Under the pieces are notes generated by a model that made no database searches, was not told where the DNA came from, and saw nothing but the letters and a program-made list of their open reading frames with translations. From Patescibacteria group bacterium (GTDB lineage: Bacteria; Patescibacteriota; Minisyncoccia; Minisyncoccales; Staskawiczbacteraceae), in the NCBI GenBank assembly GCA_038065755.1, contig JBBTQJ010000020.1:1-44517 (forward strand): 44,517 nt of DNA. Reading direction: 5' to 3'. The first letter of the stretch is position 1, and every line of letters begins with the position of its first letter. Below are positions 2,628 to 44,044 of the stretch, piece after piece. Made by a program: the position numbers and the translations under genes.

Positions 2628-4100
2628 TCATTTTTTAGCTGGCCTTTTTGCGGGCTTTTTTGCTTTATCTAATTTTTTCGCTTTTGTATTTGTAATAGAA
2701 ACCGTCTTAATCTGCAATTCTTTTAATTGTTTTATATCAACCTCCGAGGGGGCTTGCATCATTAAATCTGTAGCGTCTCCTGTTTTTGGAAACGCAATAA
2801 CTTCGCGAATTGACGGCTCGTTGTTTAAAATCATTAAAAATCTGTCTATACCTGGGGCAATTCCGCCGTGGGGCGGCGCGCCATATTTAAAAGCCTCCAG
2901 CATGTGGGAAAATTGGTTTTTTTGTTCACTGGTGAATCCAATCAAATTAAAAATTTTATTTTGTATTTTTGGATCGTGAATTCTGATGCTCCCGCCTCCA
3001 ATTTCGTAACCGTTTAAAATAAAATCGTGCTGATATGACTTGGCTTTCAATGGATCTGAATCAAGCAATGAAACATCTTCTTTTTTGGGGGCTGTAAACA
3101 TATGATGCGAAGGCGCTAATTTTTCGCCCGCTCCATAGAAAAAATCTTCTTTAGTCTGTTGCACAAAGAGCGGAAAGTCAACAACAAATGCAAACGCCAA
3201 TTCGTTTGGATCGTTTTTATTTTTTCTCAAGTCTGGCTTATCGCTATTGTACTTTTTTATCACCTCGGAATAAGGAATGCGCGGAAAAGGAACTTGCTGG
3301 ATTTTCTTTTCTGGAGCTATTATTTTTACGATTGCTGTGTATAATCTTTCTATTAAATCTAAAATATCTTCCTGATCTACAAAGCTCATTTCAAGGTCTA
3401 ATTGGGTAAATTCTGGCTGTCTGTCTCCCCTGGGGTCTTCGTCTCTGAAACACCTGGCTATTTGAAAATATTTTTCAAATCCTGCAACTTGCAAAAGTTG
3501 TTTATATTGCTGAGGAGATTGCGGAAGCGCATAAAACTTACCGTGATTTAATCTTGAAGGAACTAAATAATCTCTTGCTCCTTCTGGCGTTGGTTTTGTT
3601 AAAATTGGCGTTTCAATTTCAATAAAACCTTCTTTGTCCAAAAAATCCCTGATAAATTTTATAACTTTATGTCGCGCAATAAGATTGTTTTTCATTCTTT
3701 CCCGCCTTAAATCCAAATATCTGTATTTCATTCTGACCTCTTCTCCAATATCGTAACCGTCTCCTTCAATAGACAGGGGCAAGGTTTCTGCTTTTGATAA
3801 AACATTTAAAGATTCCACAGAAAGCTCAACCTGGCCTGTTTCCATTTTTGGATTTACCATTTGCTCGGGCCTTTTGACAATTTGGCCGATAATTTCCACC
3901 ACCCACTCGGGCCTTAATTGGCCGGCCAATTCATAGGTTTCTTTGTTTGAAGGGGTAAAAACCGTCTGCAAAATTCCGCTTCTGTCTCTAAGGTCAATGA
4001 ATAAAATTTTACCATGGGCCCTTCTGCTGTTTACCCACCCTGCCACTTTCACTTTTTCTCCGATATGTTTTGCTGTTTCGTTTATTAAAAACCTGTACAT
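2628..4100 (-). CDS. aspS: aspartyl-tRNA synthetase, bacterial-type core without a GAD insertion, Lys-rich C-terminal tail
   Basis: OB-fold N-terminus; class II motif 2 (FRDEDPRGDRQPEFTQLD); motif 3 (GIAPGIDRF). SDKPDLR runs almost directly into VVDFPLF. Confidence 0.9.
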   Translation of the reverse strand: MYRFLINETAKHIGEKVKVAGWVNSRRAHGKILFIDLRDRSGILQTVFTPSNKETYELAGQLRPEWVVEIIGQIVKRPEQMVNPKMETGQVELSVESLNVLSKAETLPLSIEGDGYDIGEEVRMKYRYLDLRRERMKNNLIARHKVIKFIRDFLDKEGFIEIETPILTKPTPEGARDYLVPSRLNHGKFYALPQSPQQYKQLLQVAGFEKYFQIARCFRDEDPRGDRQPEFTQLDLEMSFVDQEDILDLIERLYTAIVKIIAPEKKIQQVPFPRIPYSEVIKKYNSDKPDLRKNKNDPNELAFAFVVDFPLFVQQTKEDFFYGAGEKLAPSHHMFTAPKKEDVSLLDSDPLKAKSYQHDFILNGYEIGGGSIRIHDPKIQNKIFNLIGFTSEQKNQFSHMLEAFKYGAPPHGGIAPGIDRFLMILNNEPSIREVIAFPKTGDATDLMMQAPSEVDIKQLKELQIKTVSITNTKAKKLDKAKKPAKRPAKK

Positions 4101-8641: not shown

Positions 8642-9202
8642 ATGTTGACGCATACTGATTTAAAAAAAGGAGTGCAGTTTATTTTTGAGGGACAGCCCTG
8701 GGAGGTTTTAGAGGCCCAGGCAATGAAAATGGCCCAAAGAAGGCCTGTAATACAAAGCAAAATAAGAAACCTGATTGACGGCCGGGCGCAGGAAAGAAAC
8801 TTTCAGCAGGGAGATATTTTTGAAGAAGCCAGCCTGGAAAAAAAAGAGATTAAATTTTTGTACCAAAACAAAGGCCAGTACTTTTTTTGTGAAAAAAACG
8901 ACCCTTCAAAAAGATTTTCTTTTACAGAATCGCAAATTGGCGTCCAGGCAAAATATTTAAAGCCAAATGAGTTTGTAACGGGAATTGTTTTTGAAGAAAA
9001 AATTATAAATTTTAGCCTGCCTATAAAGGTTCAACTAAAAGTCAAAGAGTCTGCCCCCGGGGTCAAGGGCGACCGGGCGCAAGGCGGAACAAAAGAAGCA
9101 ATATTAGAATCTGGCGTGGCCATTCAGGTTCCCCTATTTGTCGAAGAAGGCGACATTATTGAAATAAACACCGAAACCTGCGAATATGTAAGACGGGTAT
9201 AA
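8642..9202 (+). CDS. efp: elongation factor P
   Basis: 186 aa, EF-P-like across all three domains. Confidence 0.9.
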   Translation: MLTHTDLKKGVQFIFEGQPWEVLEAQAMKMAQRRPVIQSKIRNLIDGRAQERNFQQGDIFEEASLEKKEIKFLYQNKGQYFFCEKNDPSKRFSFTESQIGVQAKYLKPNEFVTGIVFEEKIINFSLPIKVQLKVKESAPGVKGDRAQGGTKEAILESGVAIQVPLFVEEGDIIEINTETCEYVRRV

Positions 9203-9215
9203 TTTTAACTACAAC

Positions 9216-9250
9216 AAAAAAACCTCCACTTCAAGGCGGAGGTTTTTTTG
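9216..9250. terminator. bidirectional terminator between the convergent efp and ATPase genes
   Basis: A-run, cctcc...ggagg hairpin, T-run. Confidence 0.6.
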
Positions 9251-9251
9251 T

Positions 9252-11705
9252 TTATTTTAATGGTGGAGTTTGCGTTGGCTGTGTTTCCGCGAAAGAACGT
9301 TGGCTGATTTCTTTTTCAACTTCTTCTTTGGGTTTTCCGTATTTTAATTTTGATATTTTTTTTAAAGACTCCACGATTTCCGGCCTGCCCTGCCGCGTAT
9401 TTACTGTTTCTATTTTGAAAGGAGTGGAAGTTTTGTTATTTAACATCATTTTTATTATCAAACTGCGGTTATCCAAATTAACCAAGTCAAATCTGGAAAA
9501 CTCCGGCTCAAATTGTTTTTCCAAAAATTCTGCGTCTTCCGCCCCTATGCGAAAGCTGGCCATTGTTCCCACATTTCCAAAAACAGCGTTCTTGATTTGG
9601 TCGGTTAATTGGGGAATATACTGGTGGGCCATTATTAAATTTAACTTATATTTTCTGGCCTCAGAAAGAATTGTGGCGATTGAGTCTGTGGTAAAATTTT
9701 GGAATTCGTCAATATATAAATAAAAATCTTTTCTCTCTTCTTCTGCAATTCTTGCTCTTTTCATAGCGGCCATTTGTATTTTTGAAACCAAAATCAAGCC
9801 AAGCAAAGAGCTGTTCACTTCTCCGGTTAGGCCCTTTGACAAATTGGCCAGAAAAATTTTCCTTTCGTCCATAATTTTTGACAAATCAAAAGAAGAGCGG
9901 GACTGCCCGATAATATTTCTCATCATTTCGTTTTCAATAAATCTTCCTACCTTTGAAACAACATAACCCAGCATATCAGATTTTGTAGAACCCGTTGTCT
10001 GCTGCCATTCTTTAAGCCAAAAATTTCTTACAATCGGGTCTGAAACTTTTGCTATTTTTTGCTGCAAAAAGGCGCTATCGGTAAACATTTTTGGTATTTC
10101 CACCAATGTGCCGGAGTTATCTTTGTCTGCCATTAATGCCAGCATAGCGTTTCTCATATAATGCTCAAACATAGGGCCGATAATTTCGGGGGGGAAAAGT
10201 TTGTAAAATATGGCTATCATTTCCTGAACCGCAAAATCTTTTTGTTCAGGACTATCGTGCTCTAACATATTCAAACCCATTGGCCTCTCCTGGTCAAAGG
10301 GTTCAAACAAAACAACATCTTCCATCCTTTCTTTGGTAATGCAAGACAAGGTATATTCAACTAACTCTCCGTGGGGATCTACCACCGCTACCCCTTCACC
10401 GCTTTCAATATCCTGCCTTATCATTTCTTTTAATAGGCCCGTTTTTCCAGTGCCTGTCTGCCCGATAATATAAAAATGCCTTCTTCTGTCGTCTCTGGTG
10501 GCAAAATAAATTTTCTTTTCCTCGTCGCGAAACACGGCCTTGCCAATTAAATTAACGCCCAATTCCGGCAAATCTGAAGGCGGAGCAACAACTCCCGATT
10601 TAACCGATTTAATATATGGAGTTTCTATGAACTGGGTTGGAAAATGATAAATACTGGCAATTTCCTCTAAGTTTAAAATATTTTTTTGCTTTGGATTAAA
10701 ATTCCTAAAACTAAAATCATAAACAAGTTTTCTTAGCTCTCTGCTGTAAACATTTATCGGCTCAAAGCTGTTTATGGCCGACAAAGAAAACTGGCTAAAA
10801 GAACCCGCTAGGTGATTTAAAATTTCTTCCGCCCTTTCTTGGGTTTTTGCAGAAGCAACTAAACGTATATTTGCCTGAAATGCCTGTTTTTGAATTTTAT
10901 TTTGTATAGCGTCATAGTCTTTTTGGTCTATATGCGTTTCTTTCTTTTTTGCGTCTTCAATGTCCTTTTTTTTCGGATCCTGATGGCTTTTAAATATTTC
11001 TGAAAAAATTTCCATTAATGCCGACTGCGAAGCCTCAGATACCGCTGTTCTTGTTGGCTTTCCTTCTCTTATTTTTTTTAAAGCTTTTTCTCCTTTTGCC
11101 CTAAAATTTTCAGCCAATGGCCTGATTATCAGCTGAATAGCCGCTCCTTCATCAGATTTTATTTTGCTTAGATTGTTGGTTATGGCAGAAAGCGGATCTT
11201 TTTCCAGATTCTGGTAAGTGCTGATAGGAAACAGGCTGTTTTCTTTTAGTTTTAAATAAGCGCCTGCTGTTGCCCCTTGCGGTTCAAAAATAGTGTAATC
11301 TTGGGGAATTTTATCCACTATTGCCCTTGGGTAAATTCCCTGCACATATTTTTCAAAAACTGTTTCTAAATATCTGGGAACCGCAACATAAAAAGAAATA
11401 TCCGAGCTTCCAAGTTGAGAGGCAATTTCAAGGGCTGCGCAAGGAATAGGCTGAAACAGTTTTGGTTTTTTTAAATATAAAAAATTGGCAAGAACTTGTT
11501 CCATTTGAGAAATCATTTCTTTTTCCTGCTTTTGCATCAAATCGTCTTTTTTAAAATCGTTTTTTGGCATCATTACCAAAAAAACAGGCATTTCCAGCCC
11601 TCCAAAAACAGCGCTTTTCTGCCGCGCTTCAATATTTATCATTACAGCAAAACCCAACAGGGTCAGAAAAAAGAGCAGAACTAAAATATAAACAACAATA
11701 ATCAT
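9252..11705 (-). CDS. membrane-anchored VirD4/TraD/HerA-like P-loop ATPase
   Basis: N-terminal TM segment; Walker A GQTGTGKTG; Walker B LYIDEFQNF; SEARKYKLNLIMAHQ. Confidence 0.7.
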   Translation of the reverse strand: MIIVVYILVLLFFLTLLGFAVMINIEARQKSAVFGGLEMPVFLVMMPKNDFKKDDLMQKQEKEMISQMEQVLANFLYLKKPKLFQPIPCAALEIASQLGSSDISFYVAVPRYLETVFEKYVQGIYPRAIVDKIPQDYTIFEPQGATAGAYLKLKENSLFPISTYQNLEKDPLSAITNNLSKIKSDEGAAIQLIIRPLAENFRAKGEKALKKIREGKPTRTAVSEASQSALMEIFSEIFKSHQDPKKKDIEDAKKKETHIDQKDYDAIQNKIQKQAFQANIRLVASAKTQERAEEILNHLAGSFSQFSLSAINSFEPINVYSRELRKLVYDFSFRNFNPKQKNILNLEEIASIYHFPTQFIETPYIKSVKSGVVAPPSDLPELGVNLIGKAVFRDEEKKIYFATRDDRRRHFYIIGQTGTGKTGLLKEMIRQDIESGEGVAVVDPHGELVEYTLSCITKERMEDVVLFEPFDQERPMGLNMLEHDSPEQKDFAVQEMIAIFYKLFPPEIIGPMFEHYMRNAMLALMADKDNSGTLVEIPKMFTDSAFLQQKIAKVSDPIVRNFWLKEWQQTTGSTKSDMLGYVVSKVGRFIENEMMRNIIGQSRSSFDLSKIMDERKIFLANLSKGLTGEVNSSLLGLILVSKIQMAAMKRARIAEEERKDFYLYIDEFQNFTTDSIATILSEARKYKLNLIMAHQYIPQLTDQIKNAVFGNVGTMASFRIGAEDAEFLEKQFEPEFSRFDLVNLDNRSLIIKMMLNNKTSTPFKIETVNTRQGRPEIVESLKKISKLKYGKPKEEVEKEISQRSFAETQPTQTPPLK

Positions 11706-11727: not shown

Positions 11728-12108
11728 TTATTTCATAAATTTTTTGTAGTACCCCTCTTGCGCTAAAACATCGTGAAAAACATCTAATAAAAAAGGGTCT
11801 TTCATATCTTTGGCAACCCCTACTGCAAAAATTATCCCCTTTTCTCCCGCAATCTCCAACAGGCGCTCTATTTTTTCTTTTTCTCCCAAAAACTCAATTT
11901 TTTTCGCTTTCTTTTTTGCCTCTTCTTTTAAATTTTCGTCCAGCTCCATTTCTTCTATTTCCCTTTTCAGATGATCTGTAATGATTTTTTCCTTTTCTGC
12001 GGCGCTCTCTCTTTTTTTTGCAGTTTCTGTTTCTTCTTTTAAAAACTCCACCCCCTGTTCTCCCAAAAAAATCTCTTTTTTAGTTTTTTCTGTTTTTTTT
12101 TCGTTCAT
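11728..12108 (-). CDS. small acidic coiled-coil protein
   Basis: Start moved to MNEKK (ATG 12108), 2 nt after the stop of the upstream gene. The longer ORF form would overlap that gene by 160 nt. Confidence 0.5.
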   Translation of the reverse strand: MNEKKTEKTKKEIFLGEQGVEFLKEETETAKKRESAAEKEKIITDHLKREIEEMELDENLKEEAKKKAKKIEFLGEKEKIERLLEIAGEKGIIFAVGVAKDMKDPFLLDVFHDVLAQEGYYKKFMK

Positions 12109-17331: not shown

Positions 17332-18288
17332 TTAACTGTCCGGGCTGATAATCATTTTTAGTAATGCCATTCTTGTAAACAATCCGCTGTCAATTTGGTG
17401 CGTAAGATATACTGCCCTCGGGTCGTCATCAACCTCTGGGGTTATTTCGTCTACCTTTGGCAGGGGGTGCATAATAATCGCGTTGCTTCCCATTAAATCA
17501 AGAATTGTTCTGTCAACAATAAAATATCCTAAACTGTGATCGTTTCTATCAAAAGATGTTCCACATTCTTTTTGCGTTCTGGTTTGATAAATAACATCTG
17601 CAAAAGGAGCGACATCTCTCAAATCGGATAATTCTGTAAACCAGACATTGTGGCGCCTGAGATAATCTTTTACATCTTCCCTCATCCTCGCAGATTCCGG
17701 CGAAACAAAATAAATTTTTACGCCGTCAAATTTTCCCAAAAGATACGAAAGCGACCTTACCGTCCTGCCATTGAATAAGTCGCCGACCATAACAAAATCT
17801 TTATTATCTATCTCCGACAACAATTTCAATATGGTTCTTAAATCTAACAATGCCTGCGTTGGATGCTGTCCGGGATGCCGGTCTCCCGCATTTAAAATGG
17901 GAACCTGCGAAACATTAGCTGCTATTTCAGCTCCAATTTCCTGATCGTATCTTAAAACAATAACATCGGGTTTATAACGATTCAAAACTTTAATTGTGTC
18001 TCTTAATGTCTCTCCTTTTTTTGCCGAAGAAAACTCTCTGGCGTTTTCAGTTGAAAATACAACCTTTCCGCCTAAATAATCCATAGCAAATTCAAAAGAT
18101 GATCTTGTGCGAGTGCTTGGCTCATAAAAAAACGATACCATTCTTTTGCCACTTAACAAATTATTTCCGCCTTTGTCAAAAACTTTTTCCATTTCGTCAG
18201 TTAAGGGAAAAAATTCTTGTTCAAGCCACAGTCGGCTGAATTGTTGGGCATAAATAACATGCGGCCATTCTTCAAATTTTATGCACAT
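17332..18288 (-). CDS. pyrB: aspartate carbamoyltransferase catalytic chain
   Basis: STRTR, HPTQ and HPLP motifs. Start set at MCIK (ATG 18288), preceded by AGGAGGG. Confidence 0.8.
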   Translation of the reverse strand: MCIKFEEWPHVIYAQQFSRLWLEQEFFPLTDEMEKVFDKGGNNLLSGKRMVSFFYEPSTRTRSSFEFAMDYLGGKVVFSTENAREFSSAKKGETLRDTIKVLNRYKPDVIVLRYDQEIGAEIAANVSQVPILNAGDRHPGQHPTQALLDLRTILKLLSEIDNKDFVMVGDLFNGRTVRSLSYLLGKFDGVKIYFVSPESARMREDVKDYLRRHNVWFTELSDLRDVAPFADVIYQTRTQKECGTSFDRNDHSLGYFIVDRTILDLMGSNAIIMHPLPKVDEITPEVDDDPRAVYLTHQIDSGLFTRMALLKMIISPDS

Positions 18289-18340
18289 AATTCCCTCCTT
18301 TTCTATTGTCAACGAACACCTGAAAGAACATATTAATTAT

Positions 18341-18501
18341 TAGACCTGTTGCGAAATAAGATTCGCAACGAAATTTTCAGATTTTGAAGCGAAAATTTGA
18401 TAAAATGAGGAGGTTTGCCTATGGCAAGCCGACGAATTTTAGCAAATTTGTAGCCAAAATATGAAAATTGCAGTAGAAATATTATTTCGCAACAGGTCTA
18501 T
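18341..18501. repeat. 161-bp long imperfect palindrome, family C copy 1 (pyrB 5' region)
   Basis: Perfect 19-bp terminal stem tagacctgttgcgaaataa/ttatttcgcaacaggtcta. The internal core matches the element at 43875-44044. Confidence 0.85.
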
Positions 18502-18502
18502 T

Positions 18503-18550
18503 ATTCTATTCTTTATTTTAAAAATATCAATAGTTTGTCGCATAATATAA
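18503..18550 (-). promoter_or_regulatory. promoter (TTGATA-16-TAGAAT) with upstream TGCGACAAA motif
   Basis: tatcaa 18525-18530 rc and attcta 18503-18508 rc; motif tttgtcgcataatataa at 18534-18550. Confidence 0.5.
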
Positions 18551-18557
18551 ATATATT

Positions 18558-18869
18558 TTAGTTTTTAATTCCTGTGATTTCAATTTCTGTGTACGGCTGT
18601 CTGTGGCCGATTTTTCTGCTGTATCTTTTTTTCGGCTTATATTTAAAAACAATTATCTTGTCACCTTTTGCATGCTTTAGCACTTTTGCCGAAACATTGG
18701 CTTCTTTCACTGTCGGATTTCCTATATCAATTTTTTTGTTTTTTTCTATCAACAAAACATCAGAGAAGACAATTTCTTCCCCTTCTTTTTTTTCTATTTT
18801 TTCAATTTTTAATTTGTCTCCCGGTTTGACAATGTATTGTTTTCCGCCGGTTTTTATAACAGCTAACAT
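18558..18869 (-). CDS. rplU: 50S ribosomal protein L21
   Basis: MLAVIKTGGKQYIVKPGD... is a typical L21 sequence. Confidence 0.9.
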   Translation of the reverse strand: MLAVIKTGGKQYIVKPGDKLKIEKIEKKEGEEIVFSDVLLIEKNKKIDIGNPTVKEANVSAKVLKHAKGDKIIVFKYKPKKRYSRKIGHRQPYTEIEITGIKN

Positions 18870-20464: not shown

Positions 20465-20487
20465 ATTGGGACGTATGACGTCCCAAT
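20465..20487. repeat. REP-like 23-nt palindrome attgggacgtatgacgtcccaat, copy downstream of the RAYT gene
   Basis: 10-bp perfect stem, 3-nt loop, 8 nt after the stop codon. Identical to the copy at 20995-21017. Confidence 0.85.
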
Positions 20488-20494
20488 AACTATT

Positions 20495-21214
20495 CTAATC
20501 TAAAACAATGTCGCCAAAATTTTTTATTTCTTTCTTATAAACAACCCAATTATCAACTATATTTTTACAGCCCCTAACCCCACCCATCGCTTCTAAAAGA
20601 AATTCTCTTTGTGTAACATAAAAAAAATTCTTTTTACCGAGATAATCGGGGTAGCTGTGCCGTTTGTTATTCTCTAAAAACTCAACTACTTTTTCTGGAT
20701 TTTTAATACCTTTCTCTTTCCAGCCAGGCTCAATCAATGATATTAAATTAGTGTGAATATATGCAAAAACATTTTTTAGTTGTTCCTCGGTTTTAATATG
20801 AACTACCTGAAATCTGCTAAAAAGATGTCCTTTACGATCATATTTATCATTAAAATATTTTGCGTAACCACCGCTGACTTTTTTCATAAAATTAGTAATT
20901 CCATCATCTTTCAATTGTCGTAATAATAGGTGCAGATGATTGGGCATAAAAGAAAAACTTAAAACCTCTACCATTCTATCCCTTTTGTCTAGATATTGGG
21001 ACGTATGACGTCCCAATGTTTCTAATAATTTTTCTTTTTTGCGCTGAAGACGACGCAACCATATTTCTGTAGGTTTAGTATTATTAAACTCGTAAATTGA
21101 AAAAATTCCACGATAAAAATCTTTTTCTTCGCTAAAAACCAACGTGTCGCCTACGGCTCGAATAACAGTATGATAGATTTCATCATTTACTAATTGTGGT
21201 CGTTGAATTGACAT
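20495..21214 (-). CDS. REP-associated tyrosine transposase (RAYT / IS200-like Y1 HUH)
   Basis: HUH motif MPNHLHLLL and catalytic-Tyr region AYIHTN; 239 aa. Confidence 0.75.
   Translation of the reverse strand: MSIQRPQLVNDEIYHTVIRAVGDTLVFSEEKDFYRGIFSIYEFNNTKPTEIWLRRLQRKKEKLLETLGRHTSQYLDKRDRMVEVLSFSFMPNHLHLLLRQLKDDGITNFMKKVSGGYAKYFNDKYDRKGHLFSRFQVVHIKTEEQLKNVFAYIHTNLISLIEPGWKEKGIKNPEKVVEFLENNKRHSYPDYLGKKNFFYVTQREFLLEAMGGVRGCKNIVDNWVVYKKEIKNFGDIVLD
20995..21017. repeat. REP-like palindrome, copy inside the RAYT coding sequence
   Basis: Identical 23-mer, read in-frame as LGRHTSQ. Confidence 0.85.
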
Positions 21215-27202: not shown

Positions 27203-27511
27203 CACTTTTTATATATATCCCATTTTGTTCGTAAATGAGCATATTTTTCCACTCTTTATCCACACCCCACATATTATAATTTCATCACATAATAAAACAC
27301 ATCCACGCATCAACGCGTAGATGTATTTGTCGCATAATAAAACTTTTGCGAAAAAAACATGCCCTTATGTGTTTGCTATTCGCCCAAAGGATATAACACT
27401 ATAAATAACTATAAATAAAAAGTAATAATATAAAATCTGCCAAAACTACTACGATCGTAGTTTTTTTGTCAAATTTTGTTCTTAAAATATCGGATAATAA
27501 TAGTTTTACGT

Positions 27512-42510: not shown

Positions 42511-43872
42511 CTACTTGTCGGCGCCCATGCCGTCTTTAAAAACCCCCTTTCTAATCCACCTCTGCCATCCCATTCTTTTTTTTGTTGTTATGTAATAAAT
42601 ACTTTTTACAATTGCCTGAAACTCAACAAAGTCCATAACATAAAAAAGCAACCATGCTATGGGCGCCAACGGAAGAAGATTTTTGTGATATTTTTTACTT
42701 GAATCGGAAGAAATCTGAAAAACGATTACTATCGTCAAGAACCCTATAAAAAACAGCAGTGGGAAAAAATCATTGGTATAAAATGTATAGAAATAAAACA
42801 CTGTCAAAAGCGGATACTCCATTAGAAGCAATAATTCATTAAAAAGGGCTATTGGCAGAATGAGAAAGCTTAAATAAGCATTATGTTTCTTGTCTAAACT
42901 AAAAAACAGTCTGCGGTATTTATAAAATGTCATCAACCTGCCGTATTTCCACCTCAAACGTTGCTTTATCAAACTCTTCATATCCGACGGACCCTCGGTG
43001 TAAACTACTGCATTATCGGCGTATTTTACCGAATACCCCAAATATTGCAAACGAGTTGAAAGTTCAATATCTTCGGTTATTATGTTTTCGTCAAATCCGC
43101 CCGAGCCAACAATAACTCTTTTTCTATACGCTGCCGCAGCGCCACCCACAATGTAAACCGCGCTTAAAATTGAATCCGCCCTTTTAAAATAAAATCCATA
43201 AAGATATTCAAGTTGTTGTAGCAGCCCAAGTGTTCTTCTTTTGTTTCCTATAATCACATTACCTGCCACTCCGGCAACTTTAGGATTAATAAAGTGCGTT
43301 ACTATATTCCCGATAAACCGTTTGTCCATAACGCTGTCGGCATCAATTGTAACAATAATTTCGTTTCGCGCCATAGATAAGCCCCTGTTTAGGGCATAAG
43401 ATTTTCCATTGTTAGCGATTTTTTTGTACTTTATTGGCACATTGCCATTTTTTTTAAGATAATTCCTTATAAAAGCATTAACGATTTTATCGGTTGAATC
43501 GGTTGAGCCATCGTTAACTATAATGATTTCAAGGCGGGGGTAATTCGTTCTAATAACCGAACTTATCGTTAGCGCAATACCCACTTCTTCGTTGTGAGCT
43601 GATATAAGAACCGATACGGAAGGATAATATAAACGGCCGTATTTTGTCAATTTAAAAAATTTTTGTACGGGATAAAAAGGAGCCACAAAAAGATAAAGAA
43701 CATATTTAAATAAAATCGGAGTGAATAGTAGCAGTATAAAAAGGCGGATACTTGAGAAAAGGTTTGTTGAATTATATCTTTCCGATGCGCCAAGGTAAAA
43801 AAACCATATAGTAATGATATAAAATATGGTTATCAGAACAACTTTTGATAATAATTCTTTTCTTAAATTCAT
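42511..43872 (-). CDS. processive family-2 glycosyltransferase with integral membrane domains (PgaC/NodC/cellulose-synthase-like)
   Basis: NDGSTD, DADS (DxD) and QRLRW (QxxRW) motifs, with flanking TM helices. Confidence 0.8.
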   Translation of the reverse strand: MNLRKELLSKVVLITIFYIITIWFFYLGASERYNSTNLFSSIRLFILLLFTPILFKYVLYLFVAPFYPVQKFFKLTKYGRLYYPSVSVLISAHNEEVGIALTISSVIRTNYPRLEIIIVNDGSTDSTDKIVNAFIRNYLKKNGNVPIKYKKIANNGKSYALNRGLSMARNEIIVTIDADSVMDKRFIGNIVTHFINPKVAGVAGNVIIGNKRRTLGLLQQLEYLYGFYFKRADSILSAVYIVGGAAAAYRKRVIVGSGGFDENIITEDIELSTRLQYLGYSVKYADNAVVYTEGPSDMKSLIKQRLRWKYGRLMTFYKYRRLFFSLDKKHNAYLSFLILPIALFNELLLLMEYPLLTVFYFYTFYTNDFFPLLFFIGFLTIVIVFQISSDSSKKYHKNLLPLAPIAWLLFYVMDFVEFQAIVKSIYYITTKKRMGWQRWIRKGVFKDGMGADK

Positions 43873-43874
43873 CT

Positions 43875-44044
43875 AATTACCTTGAATTACGAAATGACCT
43901 TCAATTCTTTATATTTTAGTTTTAGCTGCAAATTTGCTATAACTCGTCGGCGTATCCTGCGGATATGCCTCCTCGTTCTATCAAATTTTCGCTTCAAAAC
44001 CAAAATAAAATAATTCGGAAGGCATTTCGTAACTCAAGGTAATT
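43875..44044. repeat. 170-bp long imperfect palindrome, family C copy 2 (abuts the GT2 start codon)
   Basis: 28-29 nt terminal stem taattaccttgaattacgaaatgaccttc/gaaggcatttcgtaactcaaggtaatta. The core matches 18341-18501 in the opposite orientation. Confidence 0.85.

Follow-up and report, generated by a model that had tools for sequence, protein, structure and literature searches.

MITEs are treated here as short non-coding derivatives of insertion sequences (IS) with DDE transposases, which would be moved by cut-and-paste with the transposase presumably supplied in trans. Described examples include RUP of Streptococcus pneumoniae and Nezha of cyanobacteria, both of which derive from IS630, an element that makes TA duplications. 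Transcripts of the Correia/NEMIS elements of Neisseria and of the ERIC elements of enterobacteria fold into long hairpins that are substrates of RNase III or RNase E. Within rRNA genes of Candidate Phyla Radiation (CPR) bacteria, a 2024 survey reports many uncharacterised ORF-less insertions of <200 bp and suggests that these short insertions are RNase III-processed intervening sequences (IVSs) (PMC11270868).

Here we analyse two palindromic elements in a 44.5-kb stretch of DNA (the window, meaning throughout the whole stretch that was analysed) from the Hainich aquifer metagenome, well H43, whose closest PyrB relative (82% identity) is named Staskawiczbacteria. We consider it highly probable that both copies are ordinary MITEs, that is, non-autonomous DDE transposons, belonging to two families. 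The predicted parent of copy 1 is an element of the IS5 family (HTH_Tnp_4 plus DDE_Tnp_4), and that of copy 2 an element of the IS982 family. Both families lack coding capacity, carry the inverted termini (TIRs) of autonomous IS elements, are flanked by target-site duplications (TSDs) of fixed length and occur as dispersed, polymorphic copies. The original prediction, made from the sequence of the window, had preferred a fold selected in its own right and kept a MITE/ERIC-like mobile palindrome, ranked above a riboswitch, as its fallback. It is the fallback that proved correct. The preferred reading is not supported: copies have conserved termini and TSDs, their termini equal those of autonomous IS5-family and IS982-family elements, their orientation relative to genes is random and a G.U strand bias is absent. 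TSDs combined with shared termini, which that prediction had itself named as the mark of a plain MITE, were found. In the literature we found no description of these elements or of their TIR sequences, the supplement of PMC11270868 being without sequences, and both families appear to be undescribed.

The two window copies and their relatives

The two copies (Table 1) have a ~80-nt centre in common and differ in their outer stems. Two blocks of this core, of 21 nt and 27 nt, occur at only these two places in the window, against chance expectations of 0.07 and 0.00 from shuffles. The alignment originally proposed, between 18341-18501 read on the minus strand and 43875-44044 read on the plus strand, was reproduced, and the hand counts given with it (28/32 matches in the 5' block, 30/32 in the 3' block) are right. 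Both loci are real, but the elements proper fill only the slightly narrower intervals of Table 1, the remaining bases being TSDs. Each copy is a single long hairpin, with minimum free energies of -57.0 kcal/mol (copy 1) and -59.6 kcal/mol (copy 2) and z-scores of -10.6 and -9.7 against dinucleotide shuffles. The fold bears out a perfect closing stem of 19 bp in copy 1; the closing stem of copy 2 has the expected length of ~28 bp and contains one mismatch and one bulge. As had been observed, the apical hairpins differ between the copies, yet both pair, and one T-A to C-G exchange is present.

Table 1. Coordinates of the two window copies, their duplications and core modules, and of the ~1.03-kb elements that share the terminus of copy 1.
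Feature	Position	Strand	Basis or context
Copy 1, 158-bp class-A MITE, AGACCTGTTGCGAAATAA...TTATTTCGCAACAGGTCT	18342..18499	-	between rplU and pyrB; sequence and fold
Copy 1 TSD AAT, 5' side in element orientation	18500..18502	-	read from sequence
Copy 1 TSD AAT, 3' side	18339..18341	-	read from sequence; family statistics
Copy 1 shared core hairpin module	18377..18465	-	covariance model R1: 92.6 bits, other strand 36 bits
Copy 2, 162-bp class-B MITE, ACCTTGAATTACGAAATGACC...GGCATTTCGTAACTCAAGGT	43879..44040	+	6 nt upstream of GT2 start codon; sequence and fold
Copy 2 TSD AATT, left	43875..43878	+	read from sequence
Copy 2 TSD AATT, right	44041..44044	+	read from sequence; family statistics
Copy 2 shared core hairpin module	43914..44004	+	covariance model R1: 97.1 bits, other strand 43.8 bits
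Class-A ~1.03-kb elements	L161 143-1170; L207 4565-5602; L211 936-1959; also L229, L250, L269		bounded by class-A terminus

Copy 1 points in the same direction as both of its flanking genes, rplU (18558-18869, minus strand) and pyrB (17332-18312, minus strand), while copy 2 is oriented opposite to the GT2 glycosyltransferase gene beside it (42511-43872, minus strand). The sole Shine-Dalgarno-like AAGG upstream of the GT2 ATG (window 43873-43900) lies within the MITE terminus (CAAGGT); judged from this arrangement, the insertion of copy 2 may supply, or may have replaced, the GT2 ribosome-binding site. Elsewhere, the covariance model weakly matches an AT-rich hairpin with CTACGATCGTAG at its centre, at window 27423-27491 (E = 0.095) and L033 7720-7801 (E = 0.002); this hairpin is a different repeat, outside the MITE family.

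The search for further copies that had been proposed, with a covariance model of the core, found many more. A gapped core pattern matches 23 genome contigs, nearly all Patescibacteria (Staskawiczbacteria, Nealsonbacteria and others), with at least 7 copies in one Nealsonbacteria MAG, as well as 116 metagenome contigs; no copies were found in the viral contigs searched with the same pattern. Applied to 973 kb of fetched loci, the core covariance model and an nhmmer profile together recover 179 copies, at most four per locus, of which 120 are unique. There are hundreds of copies across Patescibacteria genomes and groundwater metagenomes. Sense matches to the core model score ~80-100 bits and antisense matches ~40 bits, so that the polarity of an element is fixed.

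Apart from two copies within one 23S rRNA gene the elements are intergenic, with three apparent overlaps with crudely called ORFs, and their neighbours are unrelated genes (rnc, nusB, atpB and uvrA, for example). No orientation bias relative to genes was detected in 112 unique copies, a result with which a smaller set agrees: co-directional contexts comprise 26 sense and 36 antisense copies, with 6 convergent and 6 divergent. Wobble pairs give no consistent strand bias, G.U (sense strand) and A.C (equivalent to G.U on the other strand) having similar counts (15 vs 27 and 212 vs 146). Neither strand of the 120 unique copies encodes a conserved peptide.

The interiors of these elements can be composite. 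In class-B copies at L024 466-673 and L028 3453-3657 the 3' arm contains an extra ~40-nt palindrome (GGTCGGGAAATTCTGC..GCAGAAATTTCTCGCGACC), and at L001 6689-6916 a class-B shell encloses other hairpin repeats; nesting of palindromic repeats seems to be common in these genomes. A 106-bp class-C element (L036 6370-6475) has lost the core between two direct AAATTT repeats and, from its sequence, appears to be an internal-deletion derivative. Several binchicken bins labelled 'Gammaproteobacteria' or 'Saccharibacteria' also carry these CPR MITEs, and assembly CAYRVC01 (L299, L041), labelled 'Candidatus Saccharibacteria' in the genome collection, has a PyrB named Staskawiczbacteria. Given both the MITEs and the conflicting PyrB, taxon labelling of such bins seems unreliable.

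Termini, parent insertion sequences and mobility

The outer stems of the family sort into class A, AGACCTGTTGCG... (copy 1), class B/C, ACCTTGAATTACGAAATG... (copy 2), and a few others. The class-A terminus TAGACCTGTTGCGNAATAA, a 19-mer, matched more than 116 genome contigs, and among the matches listed it bounds ~1,030-bp elements in six loci, cyanobacterial MAGs included. These parents encode a ~300-aa transposase composed of HTH_Tnp_4 and DDE_Tnp_4, both above their Pfam cutoffs (DDE_Tnp_4 at 84-92 bits), for which the best NCBIfam match is transpos_IS5_4, at 54.6 bits against an equivalog cutoff of 140. Over ~19 nt, copy 1 and the ~1.03-kb IS5-family elements have the same termini. In one Patescibacteria MAG (L188) the class-A TIR is followed directly by a DDE_Tnp_4-type gene that is truncated by the locus edge.

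The class-B/C 19-mer terminus matched more than 118 contigs, almost all of them Patescibacteria. A 1,003-bp element at L287 407-1409 has this terminus at its ends; it is the only full IS982-type element found in 2.6 Mb of fetched loci, its termini equal those of copy 2, and its 277-aa transposase scores 133.4 bits with NF033520 (NCBIfam IS982; cutoff 130) and 107 bits with PF13612. Cognate transposases of these MITEs would be bounded by AGACCTGTTGCG... ends for DDE_Tnp_4 and by ACCTTGAATTACG... ends for IS982. Identity between MITE and IS is confined to the ~19-21 terminal nucleotides, and no transposase of either the IS5 or the IS982 family was found in the window. The closing stems, which had been noted to differ completely between the copies, are the TIRs of two different IS families, and their difference is neither covariation of a single stem nor compensatory evolution.

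TSDs were scored on unique copies only, with the element ends taken from the parent IS elements. Class-A copies are flanked by identical 3-bp direct repeats in 78 of 105 cases (permutation mean 28, maximum 43), with ATT occurring 34 times and AAT 33 times. Class-B/C copies have 4-bp repeats in 34/131 cases and 5-bp repeats in 38/131 (72/131 together), where permutations give means of 6.1 and 1.2. A TA duplication was considered and rejected, as it results from ends placed one or two bases off; the parent-IS ends give 3-bp and 4-5-bp duplications. On this scheme the insertion of copy 1 would have made the 3-bp duplication AAT, and that of copy 2 the 4-bp duplication AATT.

The class-A terminus also lies ~90-107 nt from the ends of very high-coverage Altiarchaeum contigs (L184, L189, L197, L217; positions 89-107) and in contigs labelled Methanosarcinales, Blastocatellia, Omnitrophota and others. 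Its proximity to contig ends and its occurrence under many taxon labels suggest a very widespread IS family that breaks assemblies.

Occupied and empty sites can be compared directly. A sister genome (L040/L041; PyrB 82% identical) is syntenic with the window over Na/Ca exchanger - RmuC - rplU - pyrB - methyltransferase, and its rplU-pyrB spacer of 71 nt holds an intrinsic terminator and no element. Four further pairs of occupied and empty loci were found (L158/L147, L139/L063, L121/L019, L029/L028). The 161-nt stretch of copy 1 (the element with adjoining TSD bases) recurs with 100% identity at L137 1088-1248 and L133 203-363, on H43 contigs of similar coverage, and copy 1 is 98% identical at L157; copy 2 recurs at 99.4% identity at L133 and 98.8% at L072. 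The flanks are unrelated in every case. Of the window copies, the comparison with an empty site covers copy 1, the best GT2 homologue for the copy-2 site being only 62% identical. With respect to the sister spacer (L040 3929-4001), the terminator there (TCCGCAGTTGCGGAATTTTATTTT) is canonical and follows rplU immediately, and the corresponding segment of the window (18503-18557) has no such terminator, AT-rich sequence and the MITE standing in its place.

These results bear on genome annotation, in which such hairpins should be masked as MITEs and not called as RNA genes or regulatory elements. They also indicate that CPR episymbiont genomes of ~1 Mb carry recently active MITE families, the evidence being 100%-identical copies at different loci, with TIRs that match IS elements found in Cyanobacteria too.

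Fold, shared core and rRNA insertions

Covariation was assessed on 14 full-length class-A copies, with 500 shuffles and slid controls. In this set 92.6% of cells pair, and 38 of the 53 pairs carry double changes, where shuffles average 19.5 and 0/500 reach the observed value. The covariation score is 0.46; shuffles give 0.146 and slid controls 0.06-0.10. At the level of the family the signal is therefore statistically strong and the covariation real. Its source differs along the element. Helix 1 consists of the two TIRs, and 16 of its 20 pairs show double changes; it covaries because one transposase recognises both ends, so that the TIRs must match, and not because of folding. Helices 2, 3 and 4, which comprise the remaining arm helix and the core, show double changes at 7/14, 9/12 and 6/7 pairs. 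The logic of the TIRs leaves this inner-helix covariation unexplained, along with the presence of one core in the MITEs of two IS families.

When MITEs were located by their TIRs only, 27 of 63 in class A and 26 of 77 in class B/C proved to have the core, the others having different interiors that are often palindromic; the core is therefore a recurrent internal module and not the defining part of the element. Core identity of 84-85%, compared with 61% in the arms, is inflated, as the first scans selected copies on the core, and the extra conservation is in part an ascertainment effect of finding copies in this way. In both window copies the TIRs enclose one and the same palindromic ~80-nt core, which is one of several hairpin modules inside these MITE families. 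Between them, TIRs and palindromic core turn the whole element into a hairpin of ~70 bp on either strand, and we regard the fold as largely a by-product of inverted termini and a palindromic interior. When co-transcribed with genes or rRNA, the hairpin would form dsRNA that may be tolerated or trimmed, for instance by RNase III. Only the shared core and the rRNA insertions go beyond the routine.

The rRNA insertions lie on one metagenome contig, L054 (Ga0137429_1001080), where two family members sit within the 23S rRNA gene (8950-9416 and 3282-3682), one sense and one antisense to the rRNA. They form insertions of 170 nt and 154 nt at the tips of hairpin loops, at approximately positions 871 and 2820 of the Rfam LSU model. 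In L059 and L021 the orthologous loops are short and without insertion. Like IVSs, these relatives are stem-loops at 23S helix tips; the window copies do not sit in rRNA. The MITEs are a candidate source of some of the short rRNA insertions of CPR, and a MITE landing in 23S loops offers a concrete and testable origin for some such ORF-less insertions. The 23S rRNA gene of the related CPR contig L059 also contains two group I introns (9738-10005 and 11757-11956), the first of which is adjoined by one family member (10062-10152).

One extension of the MITE reading would account for these copies, and we consider it doubtful: the core hairpin may be an independently maintained module, acquired by MITEs of at least two unrelated IS families, that renders transcribed insertions harmless as an RNase III-cleavable, IVS-like dsRNA cassette. 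If true, this would explain the copies at 23S helix tips and would connect MITEs with the short rRNA insertions of CPR and perhaps with how bacterial rRNA IVSs arose. That elements from two IS families hold one core hairpin poses a minor but genuine puzzle over the assembly of MITE interiors.

More generally, the MITEs may merely carry a hairpin, or a ~80-nt core, that is selected by the host, be it as a cassette of the IVS type or for RNase III processing, as a terminator or insulator working in both directions, or as a hairpin that binds protein. Although compatible with the MITE reading, this seems rather unlikely to us. It would fit the recurrence of the core inside elements with TIRs from two IS families or from other terminal classes, the covariation of helices 2 to 4, the two copies in 23S hairpin loops and the position of copy 1 at the place of the sister genome's rplU terminator; in addition, the opposite-strand internal loop GAGGA/GACGA would form tandem G.A pairs, and single mismatches are conserved and asymmetric (356 Y.Y vs 19 R.R). 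These Y.Y mismatches are, however, inherited and not independent events, the core occurs in only the part of the TIR-found MITEs stated above, and orientation is unbiased. TCGTC is present in 46/120 unique copies, and CCTCCTC, which the original prediction had taken for a conserved feature, in 33/120, and so is not family-wide.

A strand-specific structured RNA, either a cis-regulatory leader or a small RNA whose exposed CCUCCUC would mimic an anti-Shine-Dalgarno sequence, is very improbable. The folds are very stable and covary strongly, and copy 1 lies upstream of pyrB with its ribosome-binding site AAGGAGGG, but copies are oriented at random with respect to genes, G.U pairs are about as numerous as A.C mismatches, neighbouring genes are unrelated and insertions are polymorphic between genomes. 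The unpaired CCUCCUC, to which meaning had been attached, is confined to about a quarter of copies (27%), again without a conserved peptide. Comparison with Rfam, at gathering and at permissive thresholds, produced no family match, only chance matches of the long hairpin to plant miRNA precursors. Two smaller candidates were also rejected. A promoter (TGnTATAAT in the 5' block) has C at the last -10 position in 32/120 copies, where it covaries with its pairing partner, and a promoter scan of the two window copies gave a single 9/12 site, which lies in copy 1; a small peptide would start from opposite-strand GAGGAGG plus a start codon, a combination present in only 19/120 copies, with no conserved peptide.

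Scarcely credible is a REP/REPIN-like origin, in which the hairpins would move as ssDNA through the action of a RAYT-like Y1 (HUH) transposase whose gene lies at a distance of 2 kb (20495-21214). In its favour, this Y1_Tnp or REP-associated tyrosine transposase-like gene is nearby, the sister genome lacks both it and copy 1, Y1 homologues occur in 4 other element-bearing loci and imperfect hairpins with fixed mismatches resemble HUH substrates. Against it, the TSDs measure 3 bp and 4-5 bp, the termini are those of DDE elements, Y1 genes occupy only 5 distinct loci of the 973 kb holding 179 copies, the 21-nt hairpin that goes with the Y1 gene is unrelated to the elements, and the orientation of elements versus genes is unbiased. 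Y1 transposases (IS200/IS605) are not known to make target-site duplications. The RAYT-like gene itself (minus strand, 239 aa) is associated with two copies of the 21-nt palindrome TTGGGACGTCATACGTCCCAA, one just after the stop codon (20466-20486) and one inside the coding sequence (20996-21016). In the sister genome (L040/L041), the gene and a 72-aa ORF are both lacking at the syntenic site.

Comparison with known systems

REP/REPIN systems with RAYT are likewise abundant extragenic hairpins, and a RAYT-like gene is present in the window; the elements described here differ from REPINs in their TSDs, their DDE-type TIRs and the lack of linkage to Y1 genes. Correia/NEMIS and ERIC resemble the present elements as whole-length imperfect palindromes of ~100-160 bp with modular subtypes that sit in operons in either orientation. 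There is, however, no sequence relation to them, and a cognate autonomous IS is identified here.

The IVSs and short CPR insertions (PMC11270868) are matched by the 154-nt and 170-nt stem-loops at 23S helix tips, which fall in the size range of <200 bp and are missing from the orthologous loops of related genomes. They differ in that most members of the family lie outside rRNA genes and that excision by RNase III is here only hypothetical; the L054 sites are placed by Rfam LSU model positions.

RUP and Nezha share with the present elements a length of 100-300 bp, the absence of an open reading frame, the TIRs of an autonomous IS, TSDs of fixed length and many dispersed, strain-polymorphic copies outside protein-coding genes. 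In contrast to both, the parents here belong to the IS5 family (DDE_Tnp_4; 3-bp ATT/AAT duplications) and the IS982 family (4-5-bp duplications), the hosts are Patescibacteria, and two MITE families with different TIRs have one internal hairpin in common.
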